A DNA stretch of 64,000 nucleotides, taken from IMG/VR virus record IMGVR_UViG_3300033073_001332, positions 96,001 to 160,000 of that record, one strand, 5' to 3'. A program made the translations under genes and the position numbers. This DNA is from a virus (taxonomy: Duplodnaviria; Caudoviricetes). The notes beneath the pieces were generated by a model. It saw only the letters and a list, made by a program, of their open reading frames with translations. It was not told the DNA's origin and searched no databases. This document shows positions 9,646 through 37,619 of this stretch, in pieces (within the stretch, counting starts at the first letter, position 1; every line of letters begins with the position of its first letter).

Positions 9646-11796
9646 ATGCCCACTCAGAATTTAAATACATATTATTATCCGAAGTATAAAACTTTTTTGA
9701 ATTCAAGGCAATATTTTGACCTTACATTGGCTGCGGATGAAAGAGATTACGATGAAGAAGTTGTTTTCTCTAATGACATAATCGCTGCGAACGATGGGAA
9801 TAGATTACCTATTAGTTTAGATTTGAATAATACTAACTCTTGTCCTCAGTTGTCAATGTCTTTTGACGTGTTTTATAGTGGTGCAACATTGGTATCTAAA
9901 AATTATTATAATCCTGATAATTTAGACTTAAATTGTTTATCCTCGTTTACAGGAACATGTGATATTGGTTTGACTGCAACCGATAACGGTTTATTTACAG
10001 GAATGACCGGTGAAACATTATACTATACTATGGGTATAAGAGATGACTATAAGTTTCATCCACATTACTATGATAGAAGAATGAAACTTCACATGGTTAC
10101 AGGTTATACCACACCACCTAATACCGTATTTTCAGGTAGACCAAAAACATCCATTTATAATATAGTTTCTAAAAATGAACCAACAATTGGGTATTACCAA
10201 GAATTGTACGGAGGTTTTTATCAAGGGTTTTATAAATTGTTTGGTTATGATTATGAAGTTTTCCCTGAAAGACTAAATAAAGGGTGGACTATGGAAACCG
10301 TAATCAAACCTAGAATTTTAGACCAATACAACATCAATACAAATACTGAAGAATATTTAAACACAAGATATCCTGAAAACGAGGGAACATTTTTTTATTT
10401 TGGAACAAGAGCTGAAAACAAATACTACCATTATGCTGATGGGAACCCCGCTAGTGATAGTGGATATACAAGGGTTACTTCAGGATTAACATCTTTAAGT
10501 AGTTGTACATGTAATGAAAGTGGATATACAAATGCTAATTGTGTAAAACTTTACCCAACAAGTGCAACAACCGCATATCACAACATCGGTTGTAAATGTG
10601 GAGGTTGTTCATCAAGAGTACCTGTTCCACCATTAGACCCTAAGTTTGATGTATTATCAAATGCGTTATCAATCAGATTTAGTGGTTGTGCTGCAGACCC
10701 AAGAATTTGTGTTAAGTCAATAATCATTACAGGTGATTGTGTGACCACAGGTTCTTGTTCTACTACAGGTTTGACGTGGCAAACAGGTTATACTATATCT
10801 GAAGTTTGTAGCCCACCGATATATGAGATATGTGATTATATATGTTCGGCGATTACCGAAGACAGATGGGTTATGGTTACTGCGGTTTTTGAAAGGTATA
10901 CAACCATAGAAGAGTGTGACCTGTTTAATTTAGGTGGGTTGGGTGATATTAGAGAAGTTACATATCAATCTAATCTTAATGGAACTTCTTATAATTTAAT
11001 AATGCCACCTGAAACACATTCAGGAGGAACTAAAGAAGATAAAGTTTATCGAGTTGTTTTTGATAGAAGATGGTTTGATGATGAGTGGTACAGATTAGGC
11101 CGATTGAAAATCTACATCAATGGTTATTACTTTATGGTTATTGAAAACTTCGAGGAAATTATACCAAGAGAATTAAATTGTGAAAAGGAAAAACAATTAG
11201 GAGTTCCTTTTAACATATCATGGGGTGGAGGTTCACAAGGACTTCACGACCATTTGATTTTCAAAGAGTGCTCGAGTTGGACTTGGTCTGTTGGTAATAT
11301 TGATACGAATTTAGTATATACCGCTTGTAGTGGAAATGTAATAACACTAAGCGGTTTGACAGGTCAATCCGGAACAATATATACCAAATATAATACAACA
11401 CCTTATTTTACATCTGCATCGACAGCAACCACATTAACATATACTGGAAATTACGTACCATTAGAGGGGTCATACATTCAAGACCCTGAATTATTTCCTG
11501 ATGAAATTTTATCAGCAACAACATATAGTGGATTAACAACCCAAATTTTAATGGAACAAAATTTTGGGGGTTCGTTTATGGGTGGATTATCTCAGTTTAG
11601 GATGTATACAGAGGCATTTAATAGTTCACAAGTACAACACAACTTTAGAATACTAAAAGATAGATTTAATTTATTTGACTATTGGTGTCCTAATTGTTTA
11701 ACACCATCAATTAATGCTGGTTTTGAAAATCCAATTTTATTCGGTGAAAACACATTCTTCCAAGTTGGTGAGAACGAATACGTTATGTTTACATAA
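9646..11796 (+). CDS. Virion structural protein, probable ConA/LamG-like fold, Cys-rich
   Basis: WTMETVIKP, WVMVTAVF, LKIYING and FMGGLSQFRMY...QVQHNF resemble LamG strands; late motif upstream. Confidence 0.55.
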   Translation: MPTQNLNTYYYPKYKTFLNSRQYFDLTLAADERDYDEEVVFSNDIIAANDGNRLPISLDLNNTNSCPQLSMSFDVFYSGATLVSKNYYNPDNLDLNCLSSFTGTCDIGLTATDNGLFTGMTGETLYYTMGIRDDYKFHPHYYDRRMKLHMVTGYTTPPNTVFSGRPKTSIYNIVSKNEPTIGYYQELYGGFYQGFYKLFGYDYEVFPERLNKGWTMETVIKPRILDQYNINTNTEEYLNTRYPENEGTFFYFGTRAENKYYHYADGNPASDSGYTRVTSGLTSLSSCTCNESGYTNANCVKLYPTSATTAYHNIGCKCGGCSSRVPVPPLDPKFDVLSNALSIRFSGCAADPRICVKSIIITGDCVTTGSCSTTGLTWQTGYTISEVCSPPIYEICDYICSAITEDRWVMVTAVFERYTTIEECDLFNLGGLGDIREVTYQSNLNGTSYNLIMPPETHSGGTKEDKVYRVVFDRRWFDDEWYRLGRLKIYINGYYFMVIENFEEIIPRELNCEKEKQLGVPFNISWGGGSQGLHDHLIFKECSSWTWSVGNIDTNLVYTACSGNVITLSGLTGQSGTIYTKYNTTPYFTSASTATTLTYTGNYVPLEGSYIQDPELFPDEILSATTYSGLTTQILMEQNFGGSFMGGLSQFRMYTEAFNSSQVQHNFRILKDRFNLFDYWCPNCLTPSINAGFENPILFGENTFFQVGENEYVMFT

Positions 11797-11836
11797 ACAA
11801 TACAACAATGATTAATATATTTATAAAATAAAAATT

Positions 11837-13906
11837 ATGGCACTTACAGGTAAAACTATATCAGAATTAAATTATTTATCGGCAGCAACAAGCAATACTC
11901 TGTTTCCTGTTGAATTATCGGGTTTAACTTATTATGTCCCGTATTCTGGTATGACCGGAATTGTAGGTGGGAATACACCAATATCTATCACATATGATGA
12001 ATTATATTCACTATACACTGGAGGAACTTTAAGTGCCGGTAGACTTTATTTAATTACAGATTTTCAAACCTGTTACGACCAACCAAATTATGATAGTCAA
12101 GGAACACCTATTACTACTGGAAATTTTAAATCAGGTAATACAGAACAAATTGTTGTTTTAGCAACGGCAAGTAATAAATTATCACCACAAGCTTATTCAT
12201 TGGATTATCCTGATGATATATTAAAATATGACATAACTTTCAGATTTACTGAGGTAACTAATACCCGAGCAAAAGGAAGGATAACAGAACGTATTGATAG
12301 ATTTAATAATAGAACAGACTATGATTTTAGAGCAGTTCAATTTATTAGATATGTTGGGTATTTCTCTGAAAGATTTTATGATGGTAAAATTACCTTAACA
12401 TCAAGTAATGGTCTTGTCACAGGTACAACAACGTTGTTTTTAAGTAATTTCTCTAACGGCGATATTTTTGGTGTTTACTACCCTTATGGAGCAACTTTAT
12501 CTTGCTTCAAATATTACGAAATTACATCAATAGTTAGTGATACTGAAATGTATGTCACAGGTAGGACTTTAACAGATATAAGTAATACCTATTTCTCAAG
12601 AGGTTTAACATTACCTAATTATAGTAGTCCTTTTCAAAACAACGTTACGGGAGGTACAAACGATGATTTTGCAGAATATTATACATTTGATGAAAATAGC
12701 TACGGAACTTATATCGGAAATAATAGTGATTATTACGTCTTTATACTTTCAAATAATGTATTCAAAGCTGGAAATTATTACAATAATATTTTTGGGGAAA
12801 ACTCAATTTGTAACACTTTAGATGATGATATGGATTCAAACACATTCGGACCTTTTTCATCATTTAATATTTTAACTAATGATTTTGACAGGAATACGGT
12901 AGGTCCTTTCTTTGAAAGTAATATTATCGATTGTGATATGGAAGGTAATATTATAGGTGAAAGATTTTCATTTAATATGATTGGTGATGCAGACGGACCC
13001 GACTTTGATTACAATAGAATTGGTTTTGGTTATAGATATAATTTTTTAACCTTGAATAATAATTCGTTTAGTAATAATGATATTGGGTATAATTTTTCAA
13101 GTAATATTATTGATAGTGGTTTTAGAAATAATGTTGTAGTTGGGGACTTTACTCTGAACGTAATTGTTTATAATGATTTTAATGATAATTTTATAGGTAA
13201 TAATTTCTACAATAATAATATCCCTGTTGGATTCTCAAATAACAATATAGGGGGTCAATTTTATGACAACAATATTTGGAGTGTTTTTAATGACAATACT
13301 TTAGGTGAAAATGTTTTTACAAATAACTTTGGTAATCCAAATAGTATAGGAACATACCAATTCAATGGTAATAAAATCGGAGGAGACTTTGGGAATAATT
13401 ATTTTTCAGGTAATACTCAATTCAATACTATTGGTTTTTCATGTACGACTAATCATGTGGACAATAATTTTTCATATAATCAAATAGGTTATGGTTTTTA
13501 TAATAATACGATAGCTAATGATTTTGGCTTTGGTGGCGGTAACTACAGAGGAAATATTATTGGTAACGGATTTGTGTCTAATGTGATAGGGGAATATTGT
13601 TATGATAATACATTTGGTGACGAATGTGCTTCTAATAATCTTGGGAACTATTTCACAAACAATAAGATTTCACACTCTTTTAACAATGTAACTACAGTTG
13701 ACTTAGACACTTCAGGTTATTTTCAAAATAATAATTTTACCTACGGATTTTTCAATGTGAATTTAACGTTAACAGGAGGAACAGGTGGAAACCCAATATT
13801 TTACACACAAATAACTACTAATGTTGTAAAAGACTCGGTGGATAATACGGGTTACGTTACCTTCTTGAGTGGTGGTACAATAGTTGCCAGAACAATAATT
13901 GTTTAA
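11837..13906 (+). CDS. Tail fibre/spike-like protein with Asn-rich beta-helix repeats
   Basis: Many roughly 11-aa NxIGxxFxxN repeats in the C-terminal half; TATTTATA at 11818. Confidence 0.65.
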   Translation: MALTGKTISELNYLSAATSNTLFPVELSGLTYYVPYSGMTGIVGGNTPISITYDELYSLYTGGTLSAGRLYLITDFQTCYDQPNYDSQGTPITTGNFKSGNTEQIVVLATASNKLSPQAYSLDYPDDILKYDITFRFTEVTNTRAKGRITERIDRFNNRTDYDFRAVQFIRYVGYFSERFYDGKITLTSSNGLVTGTTTLFLSNFSNGDIFGVYYPYGATLSCFKYYEITSIVSDTEMYVTGRTLTDISNTYFSRGLTLPNYSSPFQNNVTGGTNDDFAEYYTFDENSYGTYIGNNSDYYVFILSNNVFKAGNYYNNIFGENSICNTLDDDMDSNTFGPFSSFNILTNDFDRNTVGPFFESNIIDCDMEGNIIGERFSFNMIGDADGPDFDYNRIGFGYRYNFLTLNNNSFSNNDIGYNFSSNIIDSGFRNNVVVGDFTLNVIVYNDFNDNFIGNNFYNNNIPVGFSNNNIGGQFYDNNIWSVFNDNTLGENVFTNNFGNPNSIGTYQFNGNKIGGDFGNNYFSGNTQFNTIGFSCTTNHVDNNFSYNQIGYGFYNNTIANDFGFGGGNYRGNIIGNGFVSNVIGEYCYDNTFGDECASNNLGNYFTNNKISHSFNNVTTVDLDTSGYFQNNNFTYGFFNVNLTLTGGTGGNPIFYTQITTNVVKDSVDNTGYVTFLSGGTIVARTIIV

Positions 13907-13919
13907 AACTTTTTAAATT

Positions 13920-14273
13920 TTGGAATTTTTTATTAAACAAAACACAACTTTACCAATCATCAAAATGGATGTCGTTTTTGATGGAAGAACCGATGCTGGT
14001 GAAAATTTTTATTCAGTTTTAGATAATGCCACTTTGAGGTTTTCTATGGTAAATGAAAGTAACGGAATACCAAAGGTAAGTATGAAGCAAGCATATATTG
14101 TTGCAAAAGATAAAAGAAATCCCGATGCGCCATGGGAATACTACATTTACTATAAATGGGGTTCAAAAGATACAAATACAAAAGGAAGATTTTTAGGACA
14201 ATTTTTAGTTATATTAGAGTCGGGAGAACTGATTTCACCAATTAGAGAAAATCTTTATATCAATATTATTTGA
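13920..14273 (+). CDS. Small structural protein, BppU N-terminal-like (TTG start)
   Basis: FFIKQNTTLP...YKW...DT...GRFLGQF...P....YINI pattern. Confidence 0.5.
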   Translation: MEFFIKQNTTLPIIKMDVVFDGRTDAGENFYSVLDNATLRFSMVNESNGIPKVSMKQAYIVAKDKRNPDAPWEYYIYYKWGSKDTNTKGRFLGQFLVILESGELISPIRENLYINII

Positions 14274-14300
14274 CATGGGTAAATTTTACCTATATATTTA
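14269..14300 (+). promoter_or_regulatory. Host-type promoter of the DNA polymerase gene with a palindrome in the spacer
   Basis: TTTG(ACA), 20 nt, then TATATTTA (near the Bacteroidota TAnnTTTG consensus; also reads as TTGACA-17-TATATT). Palindrome GGTAAA-T-TTTACC at 14278-14290. Confidence 0.6.
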
Positions 14301-14360
14301 AGACGAAGGTAAATGTCGAACCTATTCGACAGCAAATACACCAAACTTAAATATAAAATT

Positions 14361-17186
14361 ATGGTTCCACAAGAAGAAATTGAACGCTTTTTATTAGGCG
14401 AAGACGACGAAAAATATATCGTTTCACTCGAATACGATTACAAATCCTCAAAAATTTATAAAGTAATACAAGACCCTATTAAGGGTAAGTTGTTACGTCC
14501 TGACACATTTATCCCATTTGCTTGGGTTGGTGACTTAAAGGGTAAAAACTTTTATAAAAACGATAAACACGCACAAAAACGTGCGATGAGTGAGAACGGT
14601 ATTATCATAGAAAAATTAGATACTCACGGAGACGAACGTTTAGAGAACGGATTAAAATACATCGTTAAAACAACAAAATCATATTCAAACCTTGTAAACT
14701 TCTTTAAGGGTGGAGGTTTAGACCCGTGGGGTAGAGATAATACGGATAGTATCCAAATCCTATCACCGGTAGAACAATACTTAATTCAAAAAAACAAACG
14801 ACTATTCAAAGGGTTTGAGGAATACGATGAAATCCACAGGTTCGTATTCGATATCGAGACCACAGGTCTTGACCCCAAAACAAGTAAGATATTCTTGATA
14901 GGGATGAAAGACAATCGTGGCTTCTTAAAATTATTATCAGCACAAAATGAAGATGAAGAACGTCAAATGATTGTTGACTTCTTTAAGACTATTGATGAAT
15001 TGAAACCATCTTTAGTTGGTGGTTACAACTCAGCATTCTTTGACTTCCCATTCATTTTGAAACGTGCTGAGATTTTGAAATTGAACATCAAAAAAATATG
15101 TAAGACATTACATCCTGATTATACTTTGAAACAAAAAGATGGTATCCTAAAGTTAGCAAACGAAATGGAACCATATGTACAAACACAAATGTGGGGATAT
15201 AACATTGTAGATATCGCACATGCTGTTCGTAGAGCTCAAGCAATCAACTCAGATATTAAGAGTTGGTCTTTGAAGTACATCACCAAATTTATTGAAGCCG
15301 AAAAAGCGAGTCGTGTTTATGTAGAAGGGGATAAGATTGGTAAAATATATTTTGAAAATGAGGATTACTTTTTGAATCCTGAAAGTGGTGGATTTAAGAA
15401 GGTAGGTATGCCAGGTACTGAAAATCTATTGGAAAGATTTCCTGGTAAGTTTTTAGAAGTAAAAGGTTCAAACATTATTGAACGATACTTGGACGATGAC
15501 CTTTATGAAACGATGGTAGTTGACGAGCAGTTCAATCAAGCAAACTTCTTATTGTCAAAGCTTGTACCAACAACATACGAAAGACTTTCAACGATGGGAA
15601 CTGCAACATTATGGAAAATGATTATGTCCGCATGGTCTTATAAACATAATTTAGCAATCCCAAGAAAGTTAGAGAAACGAAAGTTTACAGGTGGTCTTTC
15701 TCGTTTAGTACAGGTAGGTTATTCTAAAAACGTATTGAAACTTGACTACTCTTCACTATATCCTTCTATTCAGTTGGTTCATGATGTGTTCCCCGCTTGT
15801 GATGTAACGGGAGCAATGAAAAGTATGTTAAAGTACTTCCGAGACACTCGTATCAAGTACAAGAATTTGGCAAGTGAATATAAAACAATTGACCCGAAAC
15901 TTGCAATTTCATATGACAGAAAGCAGTTACCAATCAAAATCTTTATTAACGCATTCTTTGGTTCGTTATCTGCACCACAAGTATTTCCGTGGGGTGATAT
16001 TGATATGGGTGAACAAATTACTTGTACAGGTAGACAATACCTTCGTCAGATGATTATGTTCTTTATGAAAAGAGGTTATGTTCCATTAGTAATGGACACC
16101 GATGGTGTGAACTTTGAAACCCCACAAGATAGAATTGACTACAAGTATATTGGTAAGGGTCTTAACGGGTTAGTAAAAGAAGGAAAAGAATATGTTGGAG
16201 CAGAGGCTGATGTTGCTGAGTATAATGACCTATTCTTACGTGGAGAAATGGGTCTCGATATTGATGGGGTATGGCCTTCAACCATTAACGTGGCTCGTAA
16301 AAACTACGCACTTCTAACAGACAAAGGAAAAGTTAAACTTACAGGTAATACCATTAAATCTAAAAAACTTCAAACATATGTTGCAGAATTTTTGGATACT
16401 GGTCTACGAATGTTATTAGACGGTAAGGGTGGTGAGTTTTTAGATTTCTACTACGAATATGTAGAAAAACTTTACTATAGGCAAATTCCTTTGGCTAAAA
16501 TCGCAAACAAAGCCCGTGTTAAACAATCTATTGATGATTACAAAGTTCACATTACTAAAACAACAAAGGCTGGTAATATGATGTCCCGTCAAGCACACAT
16601 GGAACTTTTAATTAAAGAAGGTAAAAATCCTGGTCTTGGTGATACTATTTTTTACGTAAACAATGGAGAAAAGAAATCACATGGTGATGTACAAAAAAAG
16701 AAAGATGAACTTGTTTTGAATTGTTATCTGATTGATGAGAGGGATATTGAAATGAATCCTGATTTATTAGGTGAATATAATGTCCCAAGATATTTGGCAG
16801 CTTTCAATAAAAGAATTGAACCTCTATTGGTTGTCTACAAACCTGAAATCAGAGAAGACATTCTAATTGAAGACCCTAAGGATAGACCAATATTTACAAA
16901 ATCACAAACTGAATTGGTTCGTGGTTATCCTATGAAAGAAGCACATCAAGATACTTTAGATGAGGTACTTTCATTATCTGATATGGAGTTAACATTTTGG
17001 CAGAGTGTTGGAATTGACCCATACTACATGTATTTAGAAAATACTTTAGATTTAGTGGATATGGATTGGGTTGGAAAAAATAGACATATGATGGATGAGT
17101 ATGTAAAACAAAACAAGAAAGTAGACCAAGACGAATATTATGAATTTGATGCTGATGGAGATTTGATGGCTCTTAGTTTCGACTAA
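14361..17186 (+). CDS. polB: Family B DNA polymerase (start probably 14361 rather than 14313)
   Basis: FDIET, GYNSAFFD, LDYSSLYPS, KIFINAFFG, DTDG and KNYA motifs; ATG 14361 has an A-rich leader. Confidence 0.95.
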   Translation: MVPQEEIERFLLGEDDEKYIVSLEYDYKSSKIYKVIQDPIKGKLLRPDTFIPFAWVGDLKGKNFYKNDKHAQKRAMSENGIIIEKLDTHGDERLENGLKYIVKTTKSYSNLVNFFKGGGLDPWGRDNTDSIQILSPVEQYLIQKNKRLFKGFEEYDEIHRFVFDIETTGLDPKTSKIFLIGMKDNRGFLKLLSAQNEDEERQMIVDFFKTIDELKPSLVGGYNSAFFDFPFILKRAEILKLNIKKICKTLHPDYTLKQKDGILKLANEMEPYVQTQMWGYNIVDIAHAVRRAQAINSDIKSWSLKYITKFIEAEKASRVYVEGDKIGKIYFENEDYFLNPESGGFKKVGMPGTENLLERFPGKFLEVKGSNIIERYLDDDLYETMVVDEQFNQANFLLSKLVPTTYERLSTMGTATLWKMIMSAWSYKHNLAIPRKLEKRKFTGGLSRLVQVGYSKNVLKLDYSSLYPSIQLVHDVFPACDVTGAMKSMLKYFRDTRIKYKNLASEYKTIDPKLAISYDRKQLPIKIFINAFFGSLSAPQVFPWGDIDMGEQITCTGRQYLRQMIMFFMKRGYVPLVMDTDGVNFETPQDRIDYKYIGKGLNGLVKEGKEYVGAEADVAEYNDLFLRGEMGLDIDGVWPSTINVARKNYALLTDKGKVKLTGNTIKSKKLQTYVAEFLDTGLRMLLDGKGGEFLDFYYEYVEKLYYRQIPLAKIANKARVKQSIDDYKVHITKTTKAGNMMSRQAHMELLIKEGKNPGLGDTIFYVNNGEKKSHGDVQKKKDELVLNCYLIDERDIEMNPDLLGEYNVPRYLAAFNKRIEPLLVVYKPEIREDILIEDPKDRPIFTKSQTELVRGYPMKEAHQDTLDEVLSLSDMELTFWQSVGIDPYYMYLENTLDLVDMDWVGKNRHMMDEYVKQNKKVDQDEYYEFDADGDLMALSFD

Positions 17187-17515
17187 GAGTTTTTCAAACC
17201 ATCTGATGAAAGAATATACCAGTAATCCCCAATTTTACGATATTCAACACAAGCACCCTTATCAAGTTCTATTATATCAAATTCTTCATCAATTAAAGAG
17301 TCTGCGGTAACATCAACTCTTGTTAAAGCCTTTATAACTACATGGTCAGTTGTTTTGGAATCTAAAAATAATTCACATAAGTCGATTCCTTTTATTACAA
17401 TTGCAGATTCACCATTAGTTGTATACTTAGGGTTTGTCACAACAGCAACATCGGACGTCACGATTTCATGACCATTAATAATTCTTTTTGATGGAATAGA
17501 CCTAAAAATTGACAT
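17183..17515 (-). CDS. Hypothetical beta-rich protein, possibly structural
   Basis: 110 aa ORF downstream of the neck gene. Confidence 0.6.
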   Translation of the reverse strand: MSIFRSIPSKRIINGHEIVTSDVAVVTNPKYTTNGESAIVIKGIDLCELFLDSKTTDHVVIKALTRVDVTADSLIDEEFDIIELDKGACVEYRKIGDYWYILSSDGLKNS

Positions 17516-17522
17516 AACAAAA

Positions 17523-18644
17523 TTATATAACGGTATATGGACTTGTAAATGCTCGGAATTTTAAAAGTTTGTTTAAGTTTTCCGCCTGTAATGCTTTTTG
17601 TTCCATCATTTTTTCAGGACGAAGTCTTTCAAGTCTTGCTTTTAATTCTTCCCATAACATTGTTTTTTCATCTTTGGCTTCAGTGGCTAATGATGAATAA
17701 TCCATAGTTAATTCTGAATCAGGAGTTTTTAAATTACCACTAAATTTACCTCTAACTCTCGCTAATGTTTCTTTACAATATGCTGTAAACCATCTTCTAA
17801 CCCAAATTTGTGCAGGAGCATTAAGTTTGTCCCATCTCAATCTATCTAATGGAATATCTGAAGGTAATCTAACCACGTCAGGGTTTTTAGAAAGACAATC
17901 TTCTCTATCGTATGTATCATAGTACCAATACCAAACTCTATATTGATTTCTTTGGATGTTACCAAAGTCAAACTTACCACCGGGTACATTCATAAGGTGA
18001 ACTGCTTTTTTACCTTCAGGTAATGCCGTTACTCTATAAGTTAAGTCTCCTGTAATAATTCTTCTTTTCATTTGAATGTCAGCCATTCTCAAAAGAATAT
18101 CAAATGCTGGGGTAATAAAATAATTACCTGTCGTTCCCATCTGAGAAAAACCTGCTCCACCACCTAAACCAATACCACCGAATCCACCGAATCCACCCAT
18201 GAATGGGTCAAAGTATGCCGCATCTAACTCGGGTCTCGCAAACCATAAAAGTTCGTTTAATTCTCTACCCGCAGGTATTTCATATATTTGTTGACCTGGT
18301 ACTAAATCAATATAATCTTTTTTCAAAACCCAATCACCACCTGCTTGTAAACCAACAATTTTAGAATATGCGTAAGTATATTGGGTTTCCCAATCCATAC
18401 TTCTTGTTGATAATGCTCTTGTAATTGATTGCTCATCTAAGTTAAGACCATAGATTGAAGTCCATTGAGATTCAATTAACCAGTCTTGAACGTGTTGTTC
18501 ATAATCTTCAATAGATAACTCTAAAAGAGAATCCATCATTTCATCCTCTAATTCTACTGAACGTAAAGGTGCCCCCAAAAGATTACGTATTCTTTTGTAA
18601 AGTTTACTTCTATCTGGCTCGTTGATTATAATTGGTGTTGACAT
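17523..18644 (-). CDS. Neck / head-tail adaptor protein (T4 gp13-like)
   Basis: RIRNLLGAPLRSVELEDEM N-terminus and C-terminal WVRRWF.A..KE.LARVRGKF; late motif at 18656-18663. Confidence 0.75.
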   Translation of the reverse strand: MSTPIIINEPDRSKLYKRIRNLLGAPLRSVELEDEMMDSLLELSIEDYEQHVQDWLIESQWTSIYGLNLDEQSITRALSTRSMDWETQYTYAYSKIVGLQAGGDWVLKKDYIDLVPGQQIYEIPAGRELNELLWFARPELDAAYFDPFMGGFGGFGGIGLGGGAGFSQMGTTGNYFITPAFDILLRMADIQMKRRIITGDLTYRVTALPEGKKAVHLMNVPGGKFDFGNIQRNQYRVWYWYYDTYDREDCLSKNPDVVRLPSDIPLDRLRWDKLNAPAQIWVRRWFTAYCKETLARVRGKFSGNLKTPDSELTMDYSSLATEAKDEKTMLWEELKARLERLRPEKMMEQKALQAENLNKLLKFRAFTSPYTVI

Positions 18645-18679
18645 AGATTTTTTTATATAAATATCTAGTCAAAATAATT

Positions 18680-19768
18680 CTACACAGACTTCTTTTTAAT
18701 TTGAGTGGTATATTGGTCGTTCACAAATCCCCAATTCACTACTTTCCAAAAGTTAGAGATATATTCGTCTCTTTTATTTTTATATTTTAAATAATAAGCG
18801 TGTTCCCATAAATCCAAACCTAAAAGTGGATATCCACCATCTTTTTCGGTATTCATCAGTGGGTTATCTTGGTTTGATGTAGTCATAACCTTCAACCTAT
18901 TATTCTTGGTTAAAACTAACCAAACCCAACCTGAACCAAATTTTGATTTCGCTTCAGAACTAAATAATTCTTTAAATTTTTCAAAAGAACCAAAGTCTTT
19001 TTTAATTTTAGAAAGAATTGGGTCAGAAACTTCTTGTTTTTTTGGTGACAACATTTTCCAAAATAATGCGTGATTAAATGCTCCCCCACCATTATTTTTA
19101 ACAACTTTGTTAAATTTTGATATTTTTTCTATGATTTCTTCTAAGTCTAAATCCTTTCCTTTGATTTTTTCTAATTCAACATTTAATTTCTCAACATAAC
19201 CCTTGTAATGTTTGTTATAGTGAGTGTTCATTGTTTCACTATCAATAAATTTCTCCAATGAATTATATTCGTATGGTAACTTATCGATACTGACTTTTTT
19301 TATTTCAGTTATTAAATGATTATTATTAGATGATTTGATTTCTAACAAACTTTCTAAATTTTCAATTCTTTCTGAAAATAGTTTGTATATTGATTTTTCT
19401 AAATTTTTGTGAGACTTCTCAAATTTTTTCATTTCTTGGGATGCCGTTGCGCTAGCATCGTCTTCATTCTTACCTCCAATATCTTTTCCTTTTTTTCTTT
19501 TTAAAACGGTTCTTTGATATTCGTGAGACCACTCATGTGCTAATGTTCTTAATACATCTCGGTTCATTCTGTCTTTTGCCAATATCTTAAGACGATGTTT
19601 ATCTGTTCTAACTCCCGTCGTCATATTTTTGGTTTTCTTTTTAAGGAACAAAATTTCAACATCATCCTTTAGGGGATAATGTCTTTTTAATTGTGAAATA
19701 AAATTGTCGATTAATTCTTTTTCTTTTTTACTTGGTTCTAAATCAACGTATTCAACATTTACCTTCAT
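18680..19768 (-). CDS. sod: Fe/Mn superoxide dismutase fused to an N-terminal HExxH zincin-like domain
   Basis: SOD motifs HYNKH, NGGGAFNHALFW, FGSGWVWL, NQDNP and DLWEHAYY. N-terminal part has LRTLAHEWSHEYQ...EDDA. Confidence 0.9.
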   Translation of the reverse strand: MKVNVEYVDLEPSKKEKELIDNFISQLKRHYPLKDDVEILFLKKKTKNMTTGVRTDKHRLKILAKDRMNRDVLRTLAHEWSHEYQRTVLKRKKGKDIGGKNEDDASATASQEMKKFEKSHKNLEKSIYKLFSERIENLESLLEIKSSNNNHLITEIKKVSIDKLPYEYNSLEKFIDSETMNTHYNKHYKGYVEKLNVELEKIKGKDLDLEEIIEKISKFNKVVKNNGGGAFNHALFWKMLSPKKQEVSDPILSKIKKDFGSFEKFKELFSSEAKSKFGSGWVWLVLTKNNRLKVMTTSNQDNPLMNTEKDGGYPLLGLDLWEHAYYLKYKNKRDEYISNFWKVVNWGFVNDQYTTQIKKKSV

Positions 19769-19780
19769 GATATATAAATA

Positions 19781-21544
19781 TCAACGACGCTTAGAAATCA
19801 TATTTAACATTTCTTCAATTACCGTTGCTTCATCAAATATATCATCACCCATAACCGTTGAAATGATTTTCTTTTTTCTATTTAATATGTCGTATATGGC
19901 ACCTTCAATTGTGTTTTCAAATAGTGGGTAATAAACAGATGTTGAGTTTTTCTGACCAATTCTATGAGACCTGTCTTCTGCTTGTGAGTGTTCTGCCGGT
20001 ACAAATGATAAGTCGTTCATAATCACGGCCTCCGCTGAGGTTAGAGTAATACCTACACCTGCAGCTTTTAAGTTACCAACAAATACTTTTATCTTATCGT
20101 TTGTTTGGAATTCATCTACAGCATTTTGTCTGTGAAACTTAGTACAACTACCATCTAAATAAACCGCTTGTTTTCCAAAATGGTTATATATTTCGTTTAA
20201 TGTGTCCGTAAAGTTTGTGAATATGATTACCTTTTTACCTTGTTCAATAATATTTTCAGCCAGTTCGATTGTGTTTTTAATTTTTTCCTGTGCAATAACT
20301 TTTCTAACTTTCATCAATTTAGAAAACTGAATTGTTAAAGATGCTGACTCTTCGGGATTTTCATCGTACCAATCAAAGTATTCACCCATCAAATCTTCAT
20401 AATCTTTAGATTTCAATCTTAAATAAACAGGTGTAATGATTTTTTCAGGTAAATCTAAAACGTCTTCCTTCAACCTTCTAAGAATATGAGTTGATGTCCG
20501 TTCTCTTAATTCATCGAGGTTTGATGCTCCCGTGACATTCCAAACTTTTCTTTTACCAACACTAAATTGAAACCCATTACAATATCTTTTAGCGTAAGCC
20601 ATCCAATTCATAGCAACAGGACTATCAACAAGATTTAATAAGTTGTAATAATTCATAGGTCTTGAAGTCATTGGGGTTCCTGATAACAACCATACCCTTG
20701 TTGATTTTTGTGCAATGTCGTTTGCAATTTTTGTTCTTTGTGCTTGTGGGTTTGAAATCATGTGTGCTTCATCCATGATTACCAAATCAAATTCTGTTTT
20801 TAATATTTCTGATTCTTCTTTCTTTTTTGGGTCATGAAAATTTTTCAAGATATCATAATTGATGATAACAAAATCGTGTTCGGTTGAAAATTTCTTTCCT
20901 TCCGCAATAAAAACAGACCTATCAGAATAATTTGCAATTTCACGTTCCCAATTTATCTTTAAAGATGCAGGACATACTATTAATATTTTTTTAGCTCCCG
21001 TTTCTAACGCAGCAACGATTGTGGAAGTTGTTTTACCAAGACCCATATCGTCAGCTAAAATAAACTTTTTATTCTTAACCAGTTTTTCAATCGCTTCTTT
21101 CTGATGTGTCATTGGTGGTCTGTGAGAATATTTTTCATATTCTATTTGGACATTCTTTACTTCGTTGTCTTTAATAAGTGCCGATTTAGGCATCCAAAAC
21201 TCATGTATTGTTTCACCACTGAATATTTTACCCCAAATATGATAGGACTTATCTTTCTCAACCAACAACTTCTCAACGTATATTTCTGTTGGTTCTTTTG
21301 TATACATCTTATCTTCCATAAGTTTTTTACCAAAATATGAATCTAATTTGACCCATTTTTTTGCAACTTTTGGATTTGTGTTTTGATAATTTATAATATA
21401 TTCAGCCTGACTTCTTGTTGGTGTGAAAGTCTTACTATTTTCCTTTTTATGTTTTAAATTTAGGATATAGTTATTTGACCCTTCATAATTTTCTAAAATT
21501 GTGAGGGCTTTTGATTCAGGAGTCTTCGGTACAAAATCTTCCAT
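19781..21544 (-). CDS. SNF2/SWI2-family ATPase (HARP/SMARCAL1-like)
   Basis: ADDMGLGKT, DEAH, LSGTP and QAEDRSHRIGQ. Confidence 0.92.
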   Translation of the reverse strand: MEDFVPKTPESKALTILENYEGSNNYILNLKHKKENSKTFTPTRSQAEYIINYQNTNPKVAKKWVKLDSYFGKKLMEDKMYTKEPTEIYVEKLLVEKDKSYHIWGKIFSGETIHEFWMPKSALIKDNEVKNVQIEYEKYSHRPPMTHQKEAIEKLVKNKKFILADDMGLGKTTSTIVAALETGAKKILIVCPASLKINWEREIANYSDRSVFIAEGKKFSTEHDFVIINYDILKNFHDPKKKEESEILKTEFDLVIMDEAHMISNPQAQRTKIANDIAQKSTRVWLLSGTPMTSRPMNYYNLLNLVDSPVAMNWMAYAKRYCNGFQFSVGKRKVWNVTGASNLDELRERTSTHILRRLKEDVLDLPEKIITPVYLRLKSKDYEDLMGEYFDWYDENPEESASLTIQFSKLMKVRKVIAQEKIKNTIELAENIIEQGKKVIIFTNFTDTLNEIYNHFGKQAVYLDGSCTKFHRQNAVDEFQTNDKIKVFVGNLKAAGVGITLTSAEAVIMNDLSFVPAEHSQAEDRSHRIGQKNSTSVYYPLFENTIEGAIYDILNRKKKIISTVMGDDIFDEATVIEEMLNMISKRR

Positions 21545-21599
21545 AATATATTAAAATATAGTAAACATCTATAAAAAATCAATCAAAGTATTTATAGGT

Positions 21600-22115
21600 A
21601 TGGCAGACAATAGAGTTCCGATAACAAGACTAAACAAATTTTTCTCAGAAGAGGATTTCAATTTAGAAATTTCTATGGGTGACGAATGGTTAGGTGGTGA
21701 TATGAATTTCACACTTGTTTTATATCGTATTGATAGACAAAGAACACTTAGTGATGATGTGTATGGTGAAACATTAGAAGACGGAATCCAATTTTTACCA
21801 CCTGTCGAGTTTAAGGGATATGTTCAAATTGAGGCACCTTCTAATGTTGATTACGGTGGTTCACGTCTTTCACAATCAGAACCTGGTAACTTGAAAGTTG
21901 GGGTTTATCAAAAACAACTTGAGGAGTTGGGTATTGATATTAACTATGGTGACTACATTGGATATTACGAAAATGAAACAAGAGTTAGATATTATAGTGT
22001 GGTTGACGATGGTCGTGTATTAAGTGATAATAGACACACTTACGGTGGATATAAACCATTCTATCGTTCGATTGTTGCTGCACCTGCTACGGATAACGAA
22101 TTTAGAGGATTATAA
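21600..22115 (+). CDS. Head-closure / neck protein (gp14-like position)
   Basis: DDVYGE motif, beta-rich, located before the tail terminator and sheath. Confidence 0.5.
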   Translation: MADNRVPITRLNKFFSEEDFNLEISMGDEWLGGDMNFTLVLYRIDRQRTLSDDVYGETLEDGIQFLPPVEFKGYVQIEAPSNVDYGGSRLSQSEPGNLKVGVYQKQLEELGIDINYGDYIGYYENETRVRYYSVVDDGRVLSDNRHTYGGYKPFYRSIVAAPATDNEFRGL

Positions 22116-22117
22116 AA

Positions 22118-23158
22118 ATGGCATTACCAAAAAAAATAAAAAAACATTTACCTTTAATACCTGAGAAGGTTGGTCGTGAAAGAAGACAACAAATGTTGGA
22201 TGATATTACAGACCACGGCACTTTTCTACCTAAAGGTGTTTTACATGCGGATTTAGATTTGGGGATGTTGGATTTTGTAAAAGAAAGATTAAAATTAGTC
22301 GTAACTGAAAAATTAGTCCCTACCGTCGATAAAATTATTACAAATCAAAACTGGTCACAATTTACTGAGACGTGGGATTTCCAAGATTTAGATAAGAACA
22401 TTTCTCTACCTTTTATTGCTACGGTTAGAACACCTGAAGTTAAATACGGAACGTTTCAAGGAGGAGCTGCGAATATACCTAATAGAAGACAATTTTTTTA
22501 TTACACGGTACCAACATGGGACGGGCAAAGAAAAGGTGCGGACGTATATAAAATACCGCAACCAATCCCTGTAGATATTACTTATAATGTAAAACTATTT
22601 TGTAATCGAATGCGAGAACTTAATGAGTTCAACAAAATAGTGATGCAAACTTTCACATCAAAACAAGCATACACACAAATCAAAGGTCATTACATTCCAA
22701 TTACAATGGACGGAGTTGCTGATGAATCGGCAAAGGAGATTGGTAAAAGAAAATATTACATTGCAAGTTATACATTCATTATGAAGGGACTTCTTATTGA
22801 TGAAGCTGAATTTCAAATATCCCCCGCAATTACAAGACAAGTAACTTTATTTGAAACCGAAGATAAAGTTAAAACTAAAAAGGTAGATATAAAACCACCG
22901 AGACCAAATAACTTTGATTTGGATTTATTATTCATCACAGGTAACACCCAACTTACCGAAGTTTTTAGATACGCGGTTGATTTGAAGACAACTGAAATAT
23001 CAAACGTAAGTTCGTATGATGTTTATATAAATTCTAATTTTGTTGGTAGTAACTTAACAACAATACAAATTAATGATGGTGATACTTTTTTAATTAGTGT
23101 TACAAAAATCGATAACACTAAGGAGTCTATTATTAAAACGGTCGCGTATTTGGTTTAG
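22118..23158 (+). CDS. Tail completion/terminator protein (T4 gp15-like)
   Basis: PIPVDITYNVKLF..RMRELN motif; adjacent to the sheath gene. Confidence 0.6.
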   Translation: MALPKKIKKHLPLIPEKVGRERRQQMLDDITDHGTFLPKGVLHADLDLGMLDFVKERLKLVVTEKLVPTVDKIITNQNWSQFTETWDFQDLDKNISLPFIATVRTPEVKYGTFQGGAANIPNRRQFFYYTVPTWDGQRKGADVYKIPQPIPVDITYNVKLFCNRMRELNEFNKIVMQTFTSKQAYTQIKGHYIPITMDGVADESAKEIGKRKYYIASYTFIMKGLLIDEAEFQISPAITRQVTLFETEDKVKTKKVDIKPPRPNNFDLDLLFITGNTQLTEVFRYAVDLKTTEISNVSSYDVYINSNFVGSNLTTIQINDGDTFLISVTKIDNTKESIIKTVAYLV

Positions 23159-23320
23159 TTATTCGCCGTATATATCCTTAACTTCTTTGCAGTTTTCTGT
23201 AATAATTTTCTCTAAATATTTATACATCTTTAACCCATGTTTATCACAATAGTTCTTCAATAACATGTGAACTTCGGGTTTTATTTTAAGATTTTTTATT
23301 TTTTTTTGGTCTGTTTTCAT
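23159..23320 (-). CDS. Small ribbon-helix-helix-like DNA-binding protein (53 aa, not in ORF track)
   Basis: MKTDQKKIKNLKIKPEVHMLLKNYCDKHGLKMYKYLEKIITENCKEVKDIYGE; own TATTTATC motif on the minus strand at 23358-23365. Confidence 0.65.
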   Translation of the reverse strand: MKTDQKKIKNLKIKPEVHMLLKNYCDKHGLKMYKYLEKIITENCKEVKDIYGE

Positions 23321-23442
23321 AAAGGTAGAAAAAAGGCAGAATTTATTCTTACTCCTTGATAAATATTATCCTAAGGGAAAGTTTTTTGTAATCTGACGAT
23401 GTATTTATATAGAAAAATAAATTCTAAAACTATATTATTAAA

Positions 23443-26400
23443 ATGGCATCATCTAATAAAGTTTTTGTTTCACCAGGTGTATACACATCTGAAAGAGACT
23501 TAACGTTTGTAGCACAAAGTGTAGGTGTAACTACTTTAGGAGTTGTTGGTGAAACTTTACAAGGACCAGCATTTGAACCTATTTTCATCACTAACTTTGA
23601 CGAATTCCAAACGTATTTCGGTGGAACAAGTCCTGAAAAATTCGTTAACACCCAAATTCCAAAATATGAGTTAGGTTATATTGCAAAATCATACCTATCA
23701 CAATCCAATCAATTATTTGTAACAAGAGTACTTGGACTTTCAGGTTATGATGCGGGTCCATCTTGGTCAATTGTAACTATTGGTAATGTTAACCCCGCTA
23801 CAATTGCTGCGACAGGTACTACGGGTCCTGTAGCTGTTACATTTACAGGTACAACTGGAGGAACGGTAACATTAACTTCTGTACCATCATCAATCAACGT
23901 AGGGGGTAATTTTTATAACCCTTACACTGAATTCAATGGTGGAACTTCATCAATTGCATCTGATTTACAAAGTTATTTATCAACACAAATTAATTTATTT
24001 GCAACATCTTCATCTGCATCAGGAGCAACATCTATATTGTGGGGAACTTCAAGTGCATCAACACTGACTAGTGTTACTGGTGTTACTTCCCTTAACACTA
24101 TTACAGGTTCTACTGAAATGTTTGGTGTGAATAATGTGAATTTAGCGTACGCTAATTTATCAGCAGCAACAAACGACGCATGGTACTATGGATTATTTAA
24201 CTACTATCAAGGTACTAATGATGTGAATACTTACTACGGTCAAAGTTTAGGGGCATCCCTTTCAGGTATTTCAACAACACCTACAAGTGGTGTTTACTCA
24301 GGAACGGTTGCATTCTTTACTACCGCTTATTCAGGAGCACCTTATTCAACATACGATGATATGGTAGTTGCTACTTTAAGGTCTCGTGGTATATCAAACT
24401 ATAGTTCATCACAATCAGGACCATCATATGAAGTAACAGGATTAACTGATGTTTCAATGATTTGTACTGGTGGATATTCAGCGGTTACTAAAAACCCATA
24501 TTCGACATTCCAAATCTCAGGTGTTACATATGACGGAAATCCGTTCACGTTTGAAACTTCTATGTTGAATACAAACAAAAATTATGTTAGAAACGTATTT
24601 GGAGCATCTAACTTTGGTAAAGATAGAACTGAAGTTCCATTATTTGTTGAGGAAACGTATTCAGCACTTTTACAAACAGGATACAGAGCAGGTCAAATTA
24701 GAGGTTTATATTGTGATTTAGTTGCTCTTGATAAAGCACGTTCATTGAATACAGATAGTATTGGTTTCTACTTAGAACAATACCAAACACCAGAAACACC
24801 ATTTGTGGTTTCAGAACTTAGAGGTAATAAAGTATTCAAACTATTTAAGTTTGTTTTAATCTCAGACGGAAACGCGGCTAACACATACGTTAAACTTTCA
24901 ATTGGTAATATTTCATTCAATACTGGTACATTTGATGTATTTGTAAGAGACTTCTTTGATAATGACCAAAATGTTAAAGTATTAGAAAGTTTTACAAATT
25001 GTTCATTAGACCCATCACAAAACAATTATATCGCAAACAAAATTGGTACATCGAATGGTGAATACCAAGTTAAATCAAAATTTGTGATGTTAGAAATGAG
25101 TGATGAGGCACCGATAGACGCATTACCATGTGGTTTTGAAGGATACATTATGAGAGAATATGCAAATGCTACTCCTCCGTTTGTCCCTTACAAAACAAAA
25201 TATTACACAGCTGGTGAAACAATTTATAACCCACCATTCGGTTCAACAAGTGGAGGTGATAATCCTGTAATATCAAGTGGTGAAAATCCAAGAAGAGCTT
25301 ACTTAGGTATATCTAACATTACAGGATATGACTATGACTTCTTCCAATATAAAGGAAAACAATTACCAACAAACTTAGCAACAGATACAACAGGACCAGC
25401 ATGGGGTTACCTTACTAAAGGTTTCCACATGGATAGTGGAGCTACTGTAGTTACTATCACAAACGCATACGCAACTTCAGGACAATCCGCATTTGAAGTA
25501 GGAGTTGGAGCATTTAATTCAGAACCGACAGATACTTCAAATCCTTACTATAAATTAAACACTCGTAAATTTACGGTATTAGCTTACGGAGGTTTTGATG
25601 GTTGGGATATCTACAGAGAGTATAGAACAAATAGTGATTCATATGCTTTAGGTCAAACAGGTTTCAAATACGGAGCAGCAAGTTCACCAACATACCCAAC
25701 AGCAACAGGATGGGGAGCATTCAAAGCAATCTCAGGTCCTAACCAAGAAAGTTGGGCAAATACTGACTACTACGCTTACAAATGGGGTCAATCAACATTT
25801 GCAAATCCTGAATCAACAAATATTAACGTATTTGCAACACCAGGAATTGATTATGTAAACAACTCAAACTTAGTTGAGGATGCGATTGATATGATTGAAA
25901 CAGATAGAGCTGACTCAATTTACATTACAACTACACCTGACTTTAACATGTTCTTACCTTCATACCAAGACATTAGTGAAGGTTTGATTTACCCACAAGA
26001 GGCAGTTGACAACTTAGAAGGAACAGGAATTGATTCTAACTACACGGCAACTTACTACCCGTGGGTATTGACAAGAGATACGGTTAATAACACTCAAATC
26101 TACATTCCTGCAACTTCAGAGGTTGTAAGAAACTTAGCATTAACTGATAACATCGCGTTTCCTTGGTTCGCTTCAGCGGGTTACACAAGAGGTCTTGTAA
26201 ATGCAATTAGAGCAAGACGTAAGTTGACTCAAGATGATAGAGACACTCTATACAAAGGAAGAATCAACCCAATCGCTACTTTCTCTGATGTGGGTACGGT
26301 AATTTGGGGTAACAAAACAATGCAAATTAGAGAATCTGCGCTTGACAGAATTAATGTAAGAAGGTTGTTGTTACAAGCTCGTAAATTGATTTCAGCAGTA

Positions 26401-26655
26401 GCGGTTAGATTATTGTTTGAACAAAACGACAACAAAGTAAGACAAGACTTCTTAGATTCAGTTAACCCAATCTTAGACCAAATTAGAAGAGACAGAGGTT
26501 TGATTGACTTTAGAGTTCAAGTTTCTAACACACCTGAAGATTTAGATTCAAATACATTGACAGGTAAAATCTTCTTAAAACCAACAAGAGCGTTAGAATA
26601 CATTGATATCGAATTTGTTATCACACCAACAGGAGCGTCATTTGACAACATCTAA
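23443..26655 (+). CDS. Contractile tail sheath protein with large insertions
   Basis: SPGVYTSERD N-terminus; PWFASAGYTRG, INPI, WGNKT and RINVRRLL...FEQN C-terminus. Confidence 0.95.
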   Translation: MASSNKVFVSPGVYTSERDLTFVAQSVGVTTLGVVGETLQGPAFEPIFITNFDEFQTYFGGTSPEKFVNTQIPKYELGYIAKSYLSQSNQLFVTRVLGLSGYDAGPSWSIVTIGNVNPATIAATGTTGPVAVTFTGTTGGTVTLTSVPSSINVGGNFYNPYTEFNGGTSSIASDLQSYLSTQINLFATSSSASGATSILWGTSSASTLTSVTGVTSLNTITGSTEMFGVNNVNLAYANLSAATNDAWYYGLFNYYQGTNDVNTYYGQSLGASLSGISTTPTSGVYSGTVAFFTTAYSGAPYSTYDDMVVATLRSRGISNYSSSQSGPSYEVTGLTDVSMICTGGYSAVTKNPYSTFQISGVTYDGNPFTFETSMLNTNKNYVRNVFGASNFGKDRTEVPLFVEETYSALLQTGYRAGQIRGLYCDLVALDKARSLNTDSIGFYLEQYQTPETPFVVSELRGNKVFKLFKFVLISDGNAANTYVKLSIGNISFNTGTFDVFVRDFFDNDQNVKVLESFTNCSLDPSQNNYIANKIGTSNGEYQVKSKFVMLEMSDEAPIDALPCGFEGYIMREYANATPPFVPYKTKYYTAGETIYNPPFGSTSGGDNPVISSGENPRRAYLGISNITGYDYDFFQYKGKQLPTNLATDTTGPAWGYLTKGFHMDSGATVVTITNAYATSGQSAFEVGVGAFNSEPTDTSNPYYKLNTRKFTVLAYGGFDGWDIYREYRTNSDSYALGQTGFKYGAASSPTYPTATGWGAFKAISGPNQESWANTDYYAYKWGQSTFANPESTNINVFATPGIDYVNNSNLVEDAIDMIETDRADSIYITTTPDFNMFLPSYQDISEGLIYPQEAVDNLEGTGIDSNYTATYYPWVLTRDTVNNTQIYIPATSEVVRNLALTDNIAFPWFASAGYTRGLVNAIRARRKLTQDDRDTLYKGRINPIATFSDVGTVIWGNKTMQIRESALDRINVRRLLLQARKLISAVAVRLLFEQNDNKVRQDFLDSVNPILDQIRRDRGLIDFRVQVSNTPEDLDSNTLTGKIFLKPTRALEYIDIEFVITPTGASFDNI

Positions 26656-37302: not shown

Positions 37303-37619
37303 TGGATTACTACAATAGATATAAAGATTTTTTGATAAATGGTAAACAAACCGTTGTACCATTCCTTACTATACCCTCAAGGGTAACCGACCAACAATAT
37401 CTTTATAGAACAGGTAAAAGTCGTTTAGATAAAATTAGTTTTGAAAAATACGGAACACCTTATTTTGGTTGGTTAATATTAGCAGCTAACCCTATGTATG
37501 GTGGATTAGAACAAAATATTCCAGACGGGACGATTTTAATAATACCGTTCCCATTAACTGCAGCACTTCAAGACTACAAATCTTCTTTAGATACTCATAT
37601 ATTCTATTATGGCCGTTAG
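37302..37619 (+). CDS. LysM-like baseplate protein (gp53 / tail X-like)
   Basis: RLDKISFEKYGTPYFGWLILAANP...G..L.IP. Confidence 0.8.
   Translation: MDYYNRYKDFLINGKQTVVPFLTIPSRVTDQQYLYRTGKSRLDKISFEKYGTPYFGWLILAANPMYGGLEQNIPDGTILIIPFPLTAALQDYKSSLDTHIFYYGR

Follow-up and report, generated by a model that had tools for sequence, protein, structure and literature searches.

What does a short tetrapeptide, repeated through the outward-facing proteins of a phage particle, do there, and is it read by an enzyme of the phage? The question is raised by a stretch of 64,000 nucleotides (the window), which comprises bases 96001-160000 of the single 219,553-bp contig (~32% GC) of IMG/VR record IMGVR_UViG_3300033073_001332. 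Among the products are a tail sheath of T4 type and a major capsid protein of Gp23 type, indicating that this lake phage is an uncultured T4-like jumbo myovirus. An inspection of the window by eye (the original prediction) had noticed that the tetrapeptide [ST]GxT, i.e., Ser or Thr, Gly, any residue and Thr, recurs in virion proteins, and had proposed it as a sequon for O-glycosylation by phage-encoded glycosyltransferases (GTs). Our analysis confirms a real excess of this motif, which arises at the protein level, is confined to outward-facing virion-type proteins and does not reflect common descent of those proteins. The habit of using it is clade-specific, and the motif is found across the tail proteins of hundreds of relatives. 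It is likely that a trans-acting factor reads the motif as a tag; the best candidate for this reader is a phage GT, to which we give slightly less than an even chance.

Motif excess in virion-type proteins

Copies of [ST]GxT were counted by script and compared with per-protein composition-preserving shuffles (2000 each); the genome-wide totals leave out a 3196-aa collagen-like open reading frame (ORF). The motif occurred 166 times vs 55.8 in the shuffles (z 14.9), and shuffling within 30-aa blocks gave an expectation of 61.3 (z 12.9). The distribution was bimodal: 143 copies vs 32.3 expected were located in 17 proteins of tail, sheath and fibre type, and the remaining 190 proteins held 23 copies vs 23.9, which is the chance level. 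The contrast between structural and non-structural proteins on which the original prediction rested was thus found, with excess in virion-type proteins only. In the outer tail, sheath and fibre proteins of this phage and its relatives, the excess over chance spanned 3-10x. The counts made by eye for five proteins (12, 11, 9, 6 and 4) were matched exactly by the script. Enrichment was significant in the 716-aa protein, the 689-aa protein, the sheath and the protein at 56575 (p <=0.0055), but not in the protein at 37609 (p 0.08). Replication enzymes contained isolated copies, as had been remarked (one in PolB), and the copy at 46787 is a Walker A, TGKT. The background first estimated, one copy per 700-1000 aa, is about right for proteins rich in Ser and Thr (ST-rich) and too high for enzymes, for which about one [ST]GxT per 2000-3000 aa is expected.

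Rearranged control patterns reached only 1.1-2.0x, and the partial patterns [ST]G.[^T] and [^ST]G.T remained near chance (1.07x and 0.98x), indicating that all three fixed positions are coupled. The S-A-x-T variants that had been seen by eye were real (78 vs 31.6, 2.5x). In an unbiased scan of three-residue gapped words, SG.T and TG.T came at the top after Pro/Thr linker words, with SA.T close to them. These linker words (PTPTPT) are the most strongly over-represented three-residue patterns in the proteome (P.P.P 44 vs 5.1; PTP 51 vs 8.3), and linkers of this kind occur, for example, at the C-terminus of the product of window 9646-11796 and at residues ~181-200 of that of L005:6042-8249. Pro/Thr linkers are classic O-glycosylation sites in other systems, and those of this phage could represent a second type of acceptor.

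An excess of this kind might be an artefact of composition, low complexity, SprB or collagen repeats, a DNA word or counting by eye. In fact, ST/G-rich segments do lift the expectation, and a few copies are part of the SprB-repeat consensus (GGT ahead of PY). However, the excess withstood both the global and the local shuffles, and the same motif emerged from the unbiased scan. Codon use within the motif equalled the background, with both Ser codon families employed, and the degenerate DNA pattern appeared 166 times in the coding frame vs 2-32 times in the other five frames; a DNA-level word was rejected as the cause by these two analyses. Paralogy or repeat domains were rejected as the origin because only 9/143 copies lie in BLAST-detectable paralogous segments, namely the SprB repeats. 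A collagen-triplet origin was also rejected, since [ST]GxT hardly ever arises within the collagen-like repeat, G-[TS]-[SN]. The flanks of the motif carried 0.1-0.3 bits, with an aliphatic preference at -1 only, and contained no longer motif or repeat. The carriers had no detectable mutual homology, in agreement with the earlier statement that the motif is not a structural repeat. Taken together, these results make an artefact extremely improbable.

Residue preferences at the motif

The profile of the motif was pooled from 493 ST-rich proteins of the clade, which are related to each other, so its ratios are descriptive. At position 1, Ser (4.1x) and Thr (3.0x) were enriched and all other residues were at <=1.0x (Asn 1.0x). 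Position 2 favoured Gly (3.4x) and Ala (3.2x), with Asn at 0.8x and Asp at 0.5x. Pro was reduced to 0.1x at position x, and position 4 followed the order Thr (3.4x) > Cys (2.5x) > Ser (1.5x). Val, Leu and Ile were about 2x at -1, and charged residues were disfavoured around the motif (Lys/Arg at +2 0.1x). The same profile shape was obtained from this genome alone (Gly 3.0x, Ala 2.5x), and the pooled outgroups were flat. Since Ala equals Gly while Asn and Asp are not enriched, a small side chain appears to be required at position 2, rather than a backbone turn of the left-handed kind. The order T>C>S is a hint that position 4 may be the nucleophile that gets modified, but a weak one, as in this genome alone Cys at position 4 has 13 copies (1.8x).

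Distribution of the habit among phages

The genome-wide ratio of observed to expected copies was 2.95 in this genome, 2.69 in G003 (272 kb) and 2.05 in G004 (308 kb), two large relatives from IMG/VR. For the outgroups, the ratios were 1.36 in T4, 1.34 in Microcystis phage Mel-JY01 and 1.42 in a 200-kb part of LR756508, and no individual protein was significantly enriched in any of these three. Flavobacterium phage immuto was intermediate (1.71x). When only proteins with >=16% Ser+Thr were considered, the ratios were 3.84 (this genome), 3.26 (G003) and 2.46 (G004) vs 1.2-1.6 elsewhere; the low outgroup ratios indicate that the habit is not general to ST-rich phage proteins. In 80 related contigs, 735-aa orthologues held 401 copies vs 47.5 and other ST-rich ORFs held 2348 vs 772.5 (3.0x), while the ST-poor ORFs of the same contigs (79 vs 59.3, 1.33x) gave the generic baseline. 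Contig L261 (IMGVR_UViG_3300033069_001734), of a distant relative (24% identity in the 735-aa family), had 10 copies vs 2.8, small numbers; with 52.8% GC, this contig indicates that the habit is not tied to low-GC genomes. A literature search found no description of an [ST]GxT motif.

Gain and loss of the motif in one tail protein family

The 735-aa tail/baseplate protein is encoded in the tail module (genome 178041-180248). In 62 orthologues, 57 alignment columns had the motif in at least one sequence (median 11 per protein), forming a mosaic of gains and losses with Gly/Ala alternation. At polymorphic sites the three key residues co-occurred 1.9x more often than the product of their marginals, against 1.07 for columns taken from different sites and 1.18-1.47 for neighbouring non-motif triples (p 3e-5 and 0.02), controls that are imperfectly matched for residue frequency. 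Conservation was lower in the motif columns than elsewhere in the alignment of the family (0.32 vs 0.43).

When 1.84 billion representatives were searched with a profile, 712 members of the family were found. The 100 full-length representatives of 50% clusters were ~6x enriched overall with a bimodal distribution, and in a FastTree phylogeny the motif-free proteins fell into at least five separately supported clades. One of these (P0014, P0017 and P0019) is sister to the protein of this phage; P0051/P0117, P0078/P0130, P0089/P0138 and P0135 also represent motif-free lineages. Motif-free forms contain less Thr and more charged residues; at the 14 sites of this phage they carry K/N/D/E-type residues and have not retained the Gly. 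Thus the same fold functions without the motif, and whole lineages switch. The contigs of motif-free forms are short (<=14 kb) and at chance level (7 vs 6.5), and no close relatives of P0019, P0013 or P0135 were found in IMG/VR.

An AlphaFold2 (AF2) model of the 735-aa protein, built from a 124-sequence alignment, reached a predicted local distance difference test (pLDDT) score of 91.5 and a predicted template modelling (pTM) score of 0.89. In this model the motif Gly was placed in loops in 12/14 cases, in short helices in 2/14 and in strands in none, and the local contexts varied between strand end, strand start, helix N-terminus and long loop. VIA-align gave tail and baseplate matches of middling Z (HFTV1 tail 9.5, phi812 baseplate 7.0, KP1 baseplate 6.7), and the inserted beta-barrel resembled those of T5 Dit and EF-Tu domain 2. 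Foldseek of the model against the PDB had no match at E <= 0.001, phmmer of the protein against PDB sequences had none, and the A1 profile had one marginal match in the PDB.

A structural Gly turn of a shared fold (type I'/II' beta-turn or G1 bulge) does not account for these data, because Ala is about as frequent as Gly, Gly is lost in homologues, the contexts are varied and the carriers are unrelated. The explanation by beta-turns of one fold, which would have undone the original prediction, was therefore not borne out. The sharp profile together with repeated gain and loss points to a recognition signal.

It is nevertheless conceivable, albeit unlikely, that no enzyme is involved and that the motif is an uncharged, hydroxyl-rich loop or capping element (ST-turn, helix N-cap) that some phage lineages favour on exposed loops for physical reasons such as solubility, stability or low non-specific sticking in fresh water, with the glycan genes serving another purpose. 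All tested phages have a generic 1.3-1.5x [ST]GxT excess, the charged residues of the motif-free homologues look as if two alternative surface chemistries were in use, and the motifs lie in loops by strand ends and at helix starts. On the other hand, Asn and Asp, the usual substitutes of Gly in left-handed turns, are not enriched where Ala equals Gly; same-fold homologues drop the Gly; and the local conformations are not uniform. Bulk physico-chemistry would hardly produce an excess that depends on residue order and reaches 3-10x the level of local shuffles, nor the absence of Pro at x, nor three positions that are gained and lost together, and the ST-rich proteins of T4, Mel-JY01 and LR756508 do not have the habit.

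Carrier proteins and neighbouring genes

The carriers examined by eye and the glycan genes are listed in Table 1. The 716-aa protein had no Pfam or PHROG match, so that its earlier label, 'LamG-like', was not confirmed, and its AF2 model from a 23-sequence alignment was unusable (pLDDT 40). Neither it nor the 735-aa protein had a tblastn match among GenBank phages. The 28 distinct homologues of the 716-aa protein (42-90% identity, 50 IMG/VR loci) all have 8-18 motifs. Sites 121, 152, 374 and 380 are kept in 24-27 of the 28, with Ser/Thr swaps at position 1 and a free x, and motif Thr is more conserved in the family than other Thr (0.78 vs 0.54, p 0.004).

The 689-aa protein, whose earlier label, 'fibre', was likewise not confirmed, had no Pfam or PHROG family match and no orthologue in G003 or G004. 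Its slot is variable in the relatives, where unrelated motif-rich ORFs are often found (e.g., 28 motifs in 1340 aa). In the sheath, 8/9 motifs lie at residues 124-359. Residues 720-1069 align to T4 gp18 301-653, which places these eight within an enlarged N-terminal part; by eye, most sheath copies had been ascribed to an 'inserted domain'. The corresponding N-terminal part of T4 gp18 forms outer domains. The sheaths of T4 and Mel-JY01 contain no [ST]GxT. The 1625-aa tail-module protein had no family match, and its orthologues have 10 motifs in G003 and 7 in G004. The collagen-like fibre of 3196 aa (genome 28662-38252, L006) has a proline-free G-[TS]-[SN] repeat in which Thr never stands at the third position; about seven [ST]GxT occur in its globular N-terminal 120 residues.

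Table 1. Motif carriers and glycan-related genes, with window positions unless genome positions are indicated
Feature	Position	Strand	Evidence
Carbamoyltransferase, N-terminal part in window	2..436 (genome 94856-96436)	-	Carbam_trans_N + Carbam_trans_C on full 526 aa
GT11-type fucosyltransferase-like, variable	493..1263	-	Pfam Glyco_transf_11, E 7.6e-32
GT10-type fucosyltransferase-like, variable	1266..2078	-	Pfam Glyco_transf_10, 28.4 bits
GT2, variable accessory	2075..2800	-	Pfam Glycos_transf_2
GT2 (Glyco_tranf_2_5) + GT4 fusion, 545 aa	2804..4441	-	Pfam
dUTPase/dCTP-deaminase-like, not a GT	4438-5055		
Exonuclease, not a GT	5057-5785		
Conserved glycosyltransferase 'GT1w', GT-B-like, 404 aa	5782..6996	-	phrog_7162, E 2.5e-45; weak Glyco_trans_1_4
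Cys-rich protein, 716 aa	9646..11796	+	12 [ST]GxT vs 1.05, 0/2000 shuffles
689-aa protein, putative fibre	11837..13906	+	11 [ST]GxT vs 1.34, 0/2000 shuffles
Tail sheath, 1070 aa	23443..26655	+	9 [ST]GxT vs 2.09, p 0.0005; Pfam sheath domains at 855-1061
2317-aa protein	37609..44562	+	4 [ST]GxT vs 1.67, p 0.08, not significant
Tail-module protein, 1625 aa	56575..61452	+	6 [ST]GxT vs 1.79, p 0.0055
GT2 + GT1-like pair outside window	genome 79647-81525 (79647-80453, 80458-81525)		
Maf-like (PF01973, MptE-like domain) protein	genome 92326-93054		

Candidate readers of the motif

Upstream of the window, the same minus-strand block contains GT2, GT1-like, Gmd, DegT and epimerase genes, as well as NeuB, SIS, SDR, aminotransferase, CMP-transferase, Maf-like (PF01973) and STELLO-like genes. 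Among the genes scanned in this ~25-kb glycan locus (all but three small ORFs), no flippase, polymerase or oligosaccharyltransferase family match was obtained, which fits stepwise glycosylation in the cytoplasm.

The original prediction had assigned the modification to five GT genes and a carbamoyltransferase. The genes at 0.5-7 kb are indeed GTs, but four of the six assigned genes (GT10, GT11, one GT2 and the carbamoyltransferase) do not vary with the motif. GT10, GT11 and GT2 2075-2800 are swapped or missing in close relatives whose 716-aa orthologues keep 8-13 motifs. GT10 and this GT2 are absent from G003 and G004, and GT11 is present in only some relatives. The carbamoyltransferase family (PF16861, NodU/CmcH type) is absent from four large relatives, G001-G004, and, as G003 and G004 keep the habit, is not needed for the motif. 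Therefore, at most two of the six genes are reader candidates, namely GT 5782-6996 and the N-terminal half of 2804-4441. The motif-bearing G003, G004 and G006 (the last is a related jumbo phage described below) lack the Maf-like, NeuB and CMP-transferase genes as well as a 1527-aa multi-enzyme protein; Mel-JY01 has a 50% homologue of the multi-enzyme protein, yet no motif habit.

GT 5782-6996 was found at 60-94% identity in every relative with enough upstream flank, and also in G003, G006 and the distant motif-bearing G011 and G013, so that every sufficiently complete motif-bearing genome tested has it. It was not found in T4, Mel-JY01, LR756508 or immuto. In G004 (L051) it is present only as a 175-aa piece followed by small ORFs and may have been split or interrupted; among the three full genomes, the habit is also weakest in G004. 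Further homologues (45-65% identity) occur on contigs of metagenome-assembled genomes (MAGs) labelled Aquiluna, Coxiellaceae, Bacilli, horse faeces and archaeon (L227, L228, L230-L233). These are probably phage contigs in bins, and they suggest that the family extends well beyond lake Bacteroidota phages. The 2804-4441 gene is present in all relatives with flank, with only ~220 N-terminal residues kept in G003, G004 and G006, and the GT2 + GT1-like pair and Gmd are conserved wherever flank or genome permits the test. Such a distribution is consistent with a core of conserved genes surrounded by variable ones.

The reader might also be something other than a GT, such as a modifying enzyme of a different kind, a chaperone of assembly shared by the carriers, a decoration protein or a factor of the host, which we consider rather improbable. 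The sequence evidence is silent on the kind of reader, and T>C>S at position 4 would suit any enzyme that attacks a nucleophile. However, the regions scanned revealed no kinase, acyltransferase or other enzyme of protein modification whose conservation follows the motif, while a large, conserved core of sugar-nucleotide and GT genes is present in every sufficiently complete motif-bearing genome. Furthermore, it would be unusual for a chaperone or partner to bind at least 10 unrelated proteins at 5-20 sites each.

Several observations weigh against a phage GT as the reader. In G006, where the four conserved GTs are all present, the overall habit is weak (1.46x), even if the 735-aa orthologue there has 9 copies vs 1.04, and non-virion proteins show no clear avoidance of the motif; both points suit an explanation without any enzyme. 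The major capsid protein is not enriched (2 motifs), and immuto reaches 1.7x without the conserved GTs. None of the candidate GTs belongs to a known protein-glycosylating family, and the glycan locus could serve the remodelling of the host surface. GT 5782-6996 lies between a dUTPase/dCTP-deaminase-like gene and an exonuclease gene, neighbours that could instead suggest DNA modification; glucosylation of the hydroxymethylcytosine (hmC) type is weakened as an explanation, with no gene of the thymidylate-synthase/dCMP-hydroxymethylase family in the genome sequence (75% complete). Finally, phylogeny confounds the association between GTs and motif, which amounts to essentially one phylogenetic contrast, all motif-free homologues being on contigs of <=14 kb.

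From the sequence patterns we infer that a reader exists, that it is a GT, which GT it may be and which residue it would modify. In the mechanism that we propose, the refined motif aliphatic-[S/T]-[G/A]-x(not Pro, not charged)-T would be a lineage-specific recognition tag, carried by variable loops at the surface of those tail, sheath, baseplate and fibre proteins that face outwards. A phage-encoded cytoplasmic GT would read the tag and, before the virion is assembled or while it is being assembled, O-glycosylate a hydroxyl of its late proteins, probably that of the Thr at position 4. The candidate readers would be GT 5782-6996, the N-terminal GT2 domain of 2804-4441 and the GT2 + GT1-like pair (genome 79647-81525). 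The conserved genes for a GDP-mannose 4,6-dehydratase, an aminotransferase and an epimerase might supply the sugars, and the variable GT10, GT11, GT2, NeuB/CMP-transferase/Maf-like and carbamoyltransferase genes may elaborate a strain-specific glycan. In the broadest form of this proposal, which we offer tentatively as a serious possibility, a very large clade of uncultured freshwater Bacteroidota jumbo phages would coat tails, sheaths, baseplates and fibres with glycans by means of their own cytoplasmic O-GT and their own sequon, aliphatic-[S/T]-[G/A]-x-T, a core set writing the first sugars and a fast-changing accessory set varying the coat by strain.

Comparison with known systems and significance

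The closest known cases are the virion glycosylation of chloroviruses (Vp54) and of mycobacteriophages. In chlorovirus PBCV-1, the capsid protein Vp54 is glycosylated at the virus-specific NTGT, NTET and NTAT (PMC9614988). Virus-encoded sugar-nucleotide enzymes and GTs are common to both, and a virus-specific sequon unlike the cellular one would be; the phage, too, encodes a pathway with GDP-mannose dehydratase and numerous GTs, and its motif has four residues of which the last two are x-T. However, the acceptor in PBCV-1 is an Asn and the modification has been demonstrated chemically, whereas here Asn at position 1 stands at 1.0x, an O-linkage would be expected, the targets would be tail proteins rather than the capsid and the host is bacterial. 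Phage-encoded GTs of mycobacteriophages Che8 and Rita glycosylate virion proteins and shield them, the reported targets being the major capsid proteins (Freeman et al. 2023, cited in PMC11256854). These are likewise tailed phages with GTs of their own. Unlike there, the capsid protein is not enriched here, and the motif is spread over loops of at least 10 tail proteins. Tail-tube subunits of the mycobacteriophages are reportedly modified too, at sites in C-terminal stretches.

The motif shares the logic of N-x-S/T, i.e., a short tag with one free position that excludes Pro, located in surface loops and turned over between lineages, but consists of other residues; N-x-[ST], the sequon of N-glycosylation of PglB or NGT type, is not enriched here (631 vs 656.2, 0.96x). 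Bacteroidota O-glycosylation is similar in the probable host phylum and in the linkage to Ser/Thr. Its sequon, D-(S/T)-(A/I/L/V/M/T), stands at 1.07x in this genome (208 vs 193.8), which bears out the earlier remark that [ST]GxT differs from it. Reading of the Bacteroidota sequon takes place in the periplasm, a compartment through which the virion proteins of phages do not travel. The TibC/Aah heptosyltransferases of adhesins and the Maf-type nonulosonic-acid transferases of flagellin (PF01973) are cytoplasmic and glycosylate many Ser/Thr of surface proteins, and a Maf-like protein is encoded in this genome. However, the Maf-like gene does not track the motif, having no homologue in G003, G004 and G006.

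If [ST]GxT is a true sequon, an acceptor motif for the glycosylation of virions would be defined for the first time in tailed phages that infect Gram-negative hosts. It would allow the sugar-coated proteins and loops of hundreds of uncultured phages to be predicted from sequence alone, account for ~25 kb of glycan genes in these phages, and provide a portable pair of tag and enzyme for glyco-engineering. It would also raise the question of the role of the glycan coat, such as shielding from proteases or grazers, binding to receptors or less sticking. One and the same tail protein has motif-rich and motif-free forms, and the repeated switches between them offer a ready comparative experiment. 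Even without modification, the motif would be an unexplained, strongly selected surface code.

Probable host and other observations

Tail-module proteins of the phage bear SprB repeats, PKD, LamG_3 and collagen-like segments. G006 (G006:C1, CBFHJJ010000001.1) is a related jumbo phage contig of 248,233 bp with matches to 95/208 proteins of the studied phage (loci L229 and L236-L248), and was binned in a Flavobacteriaceae MAG, which reflects either mis-binning or a hint of the host. These segments and the binning of G006 indicate a host in Bacteroidota, which is the probable phylum. A scan of genome contigs with the SprB-repeat protein, made as a test for the motif habit in the host, found nothing.

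A 362-aa protein encoded at window 18680-19768 (-) contains a full Fe/Mn superoxide dismutase (Sod_Fe_N + Sod_Fe_C, residues 161-351), preceded by a 160-aa N-terminal extension. Between the GT block and the 716-aa gene lie genes for a WYL-domain protein and a DUF3721 protein, at window 7703-8104 (-) and 8851-9594 (-), and this pair is syntenic in all relatives.

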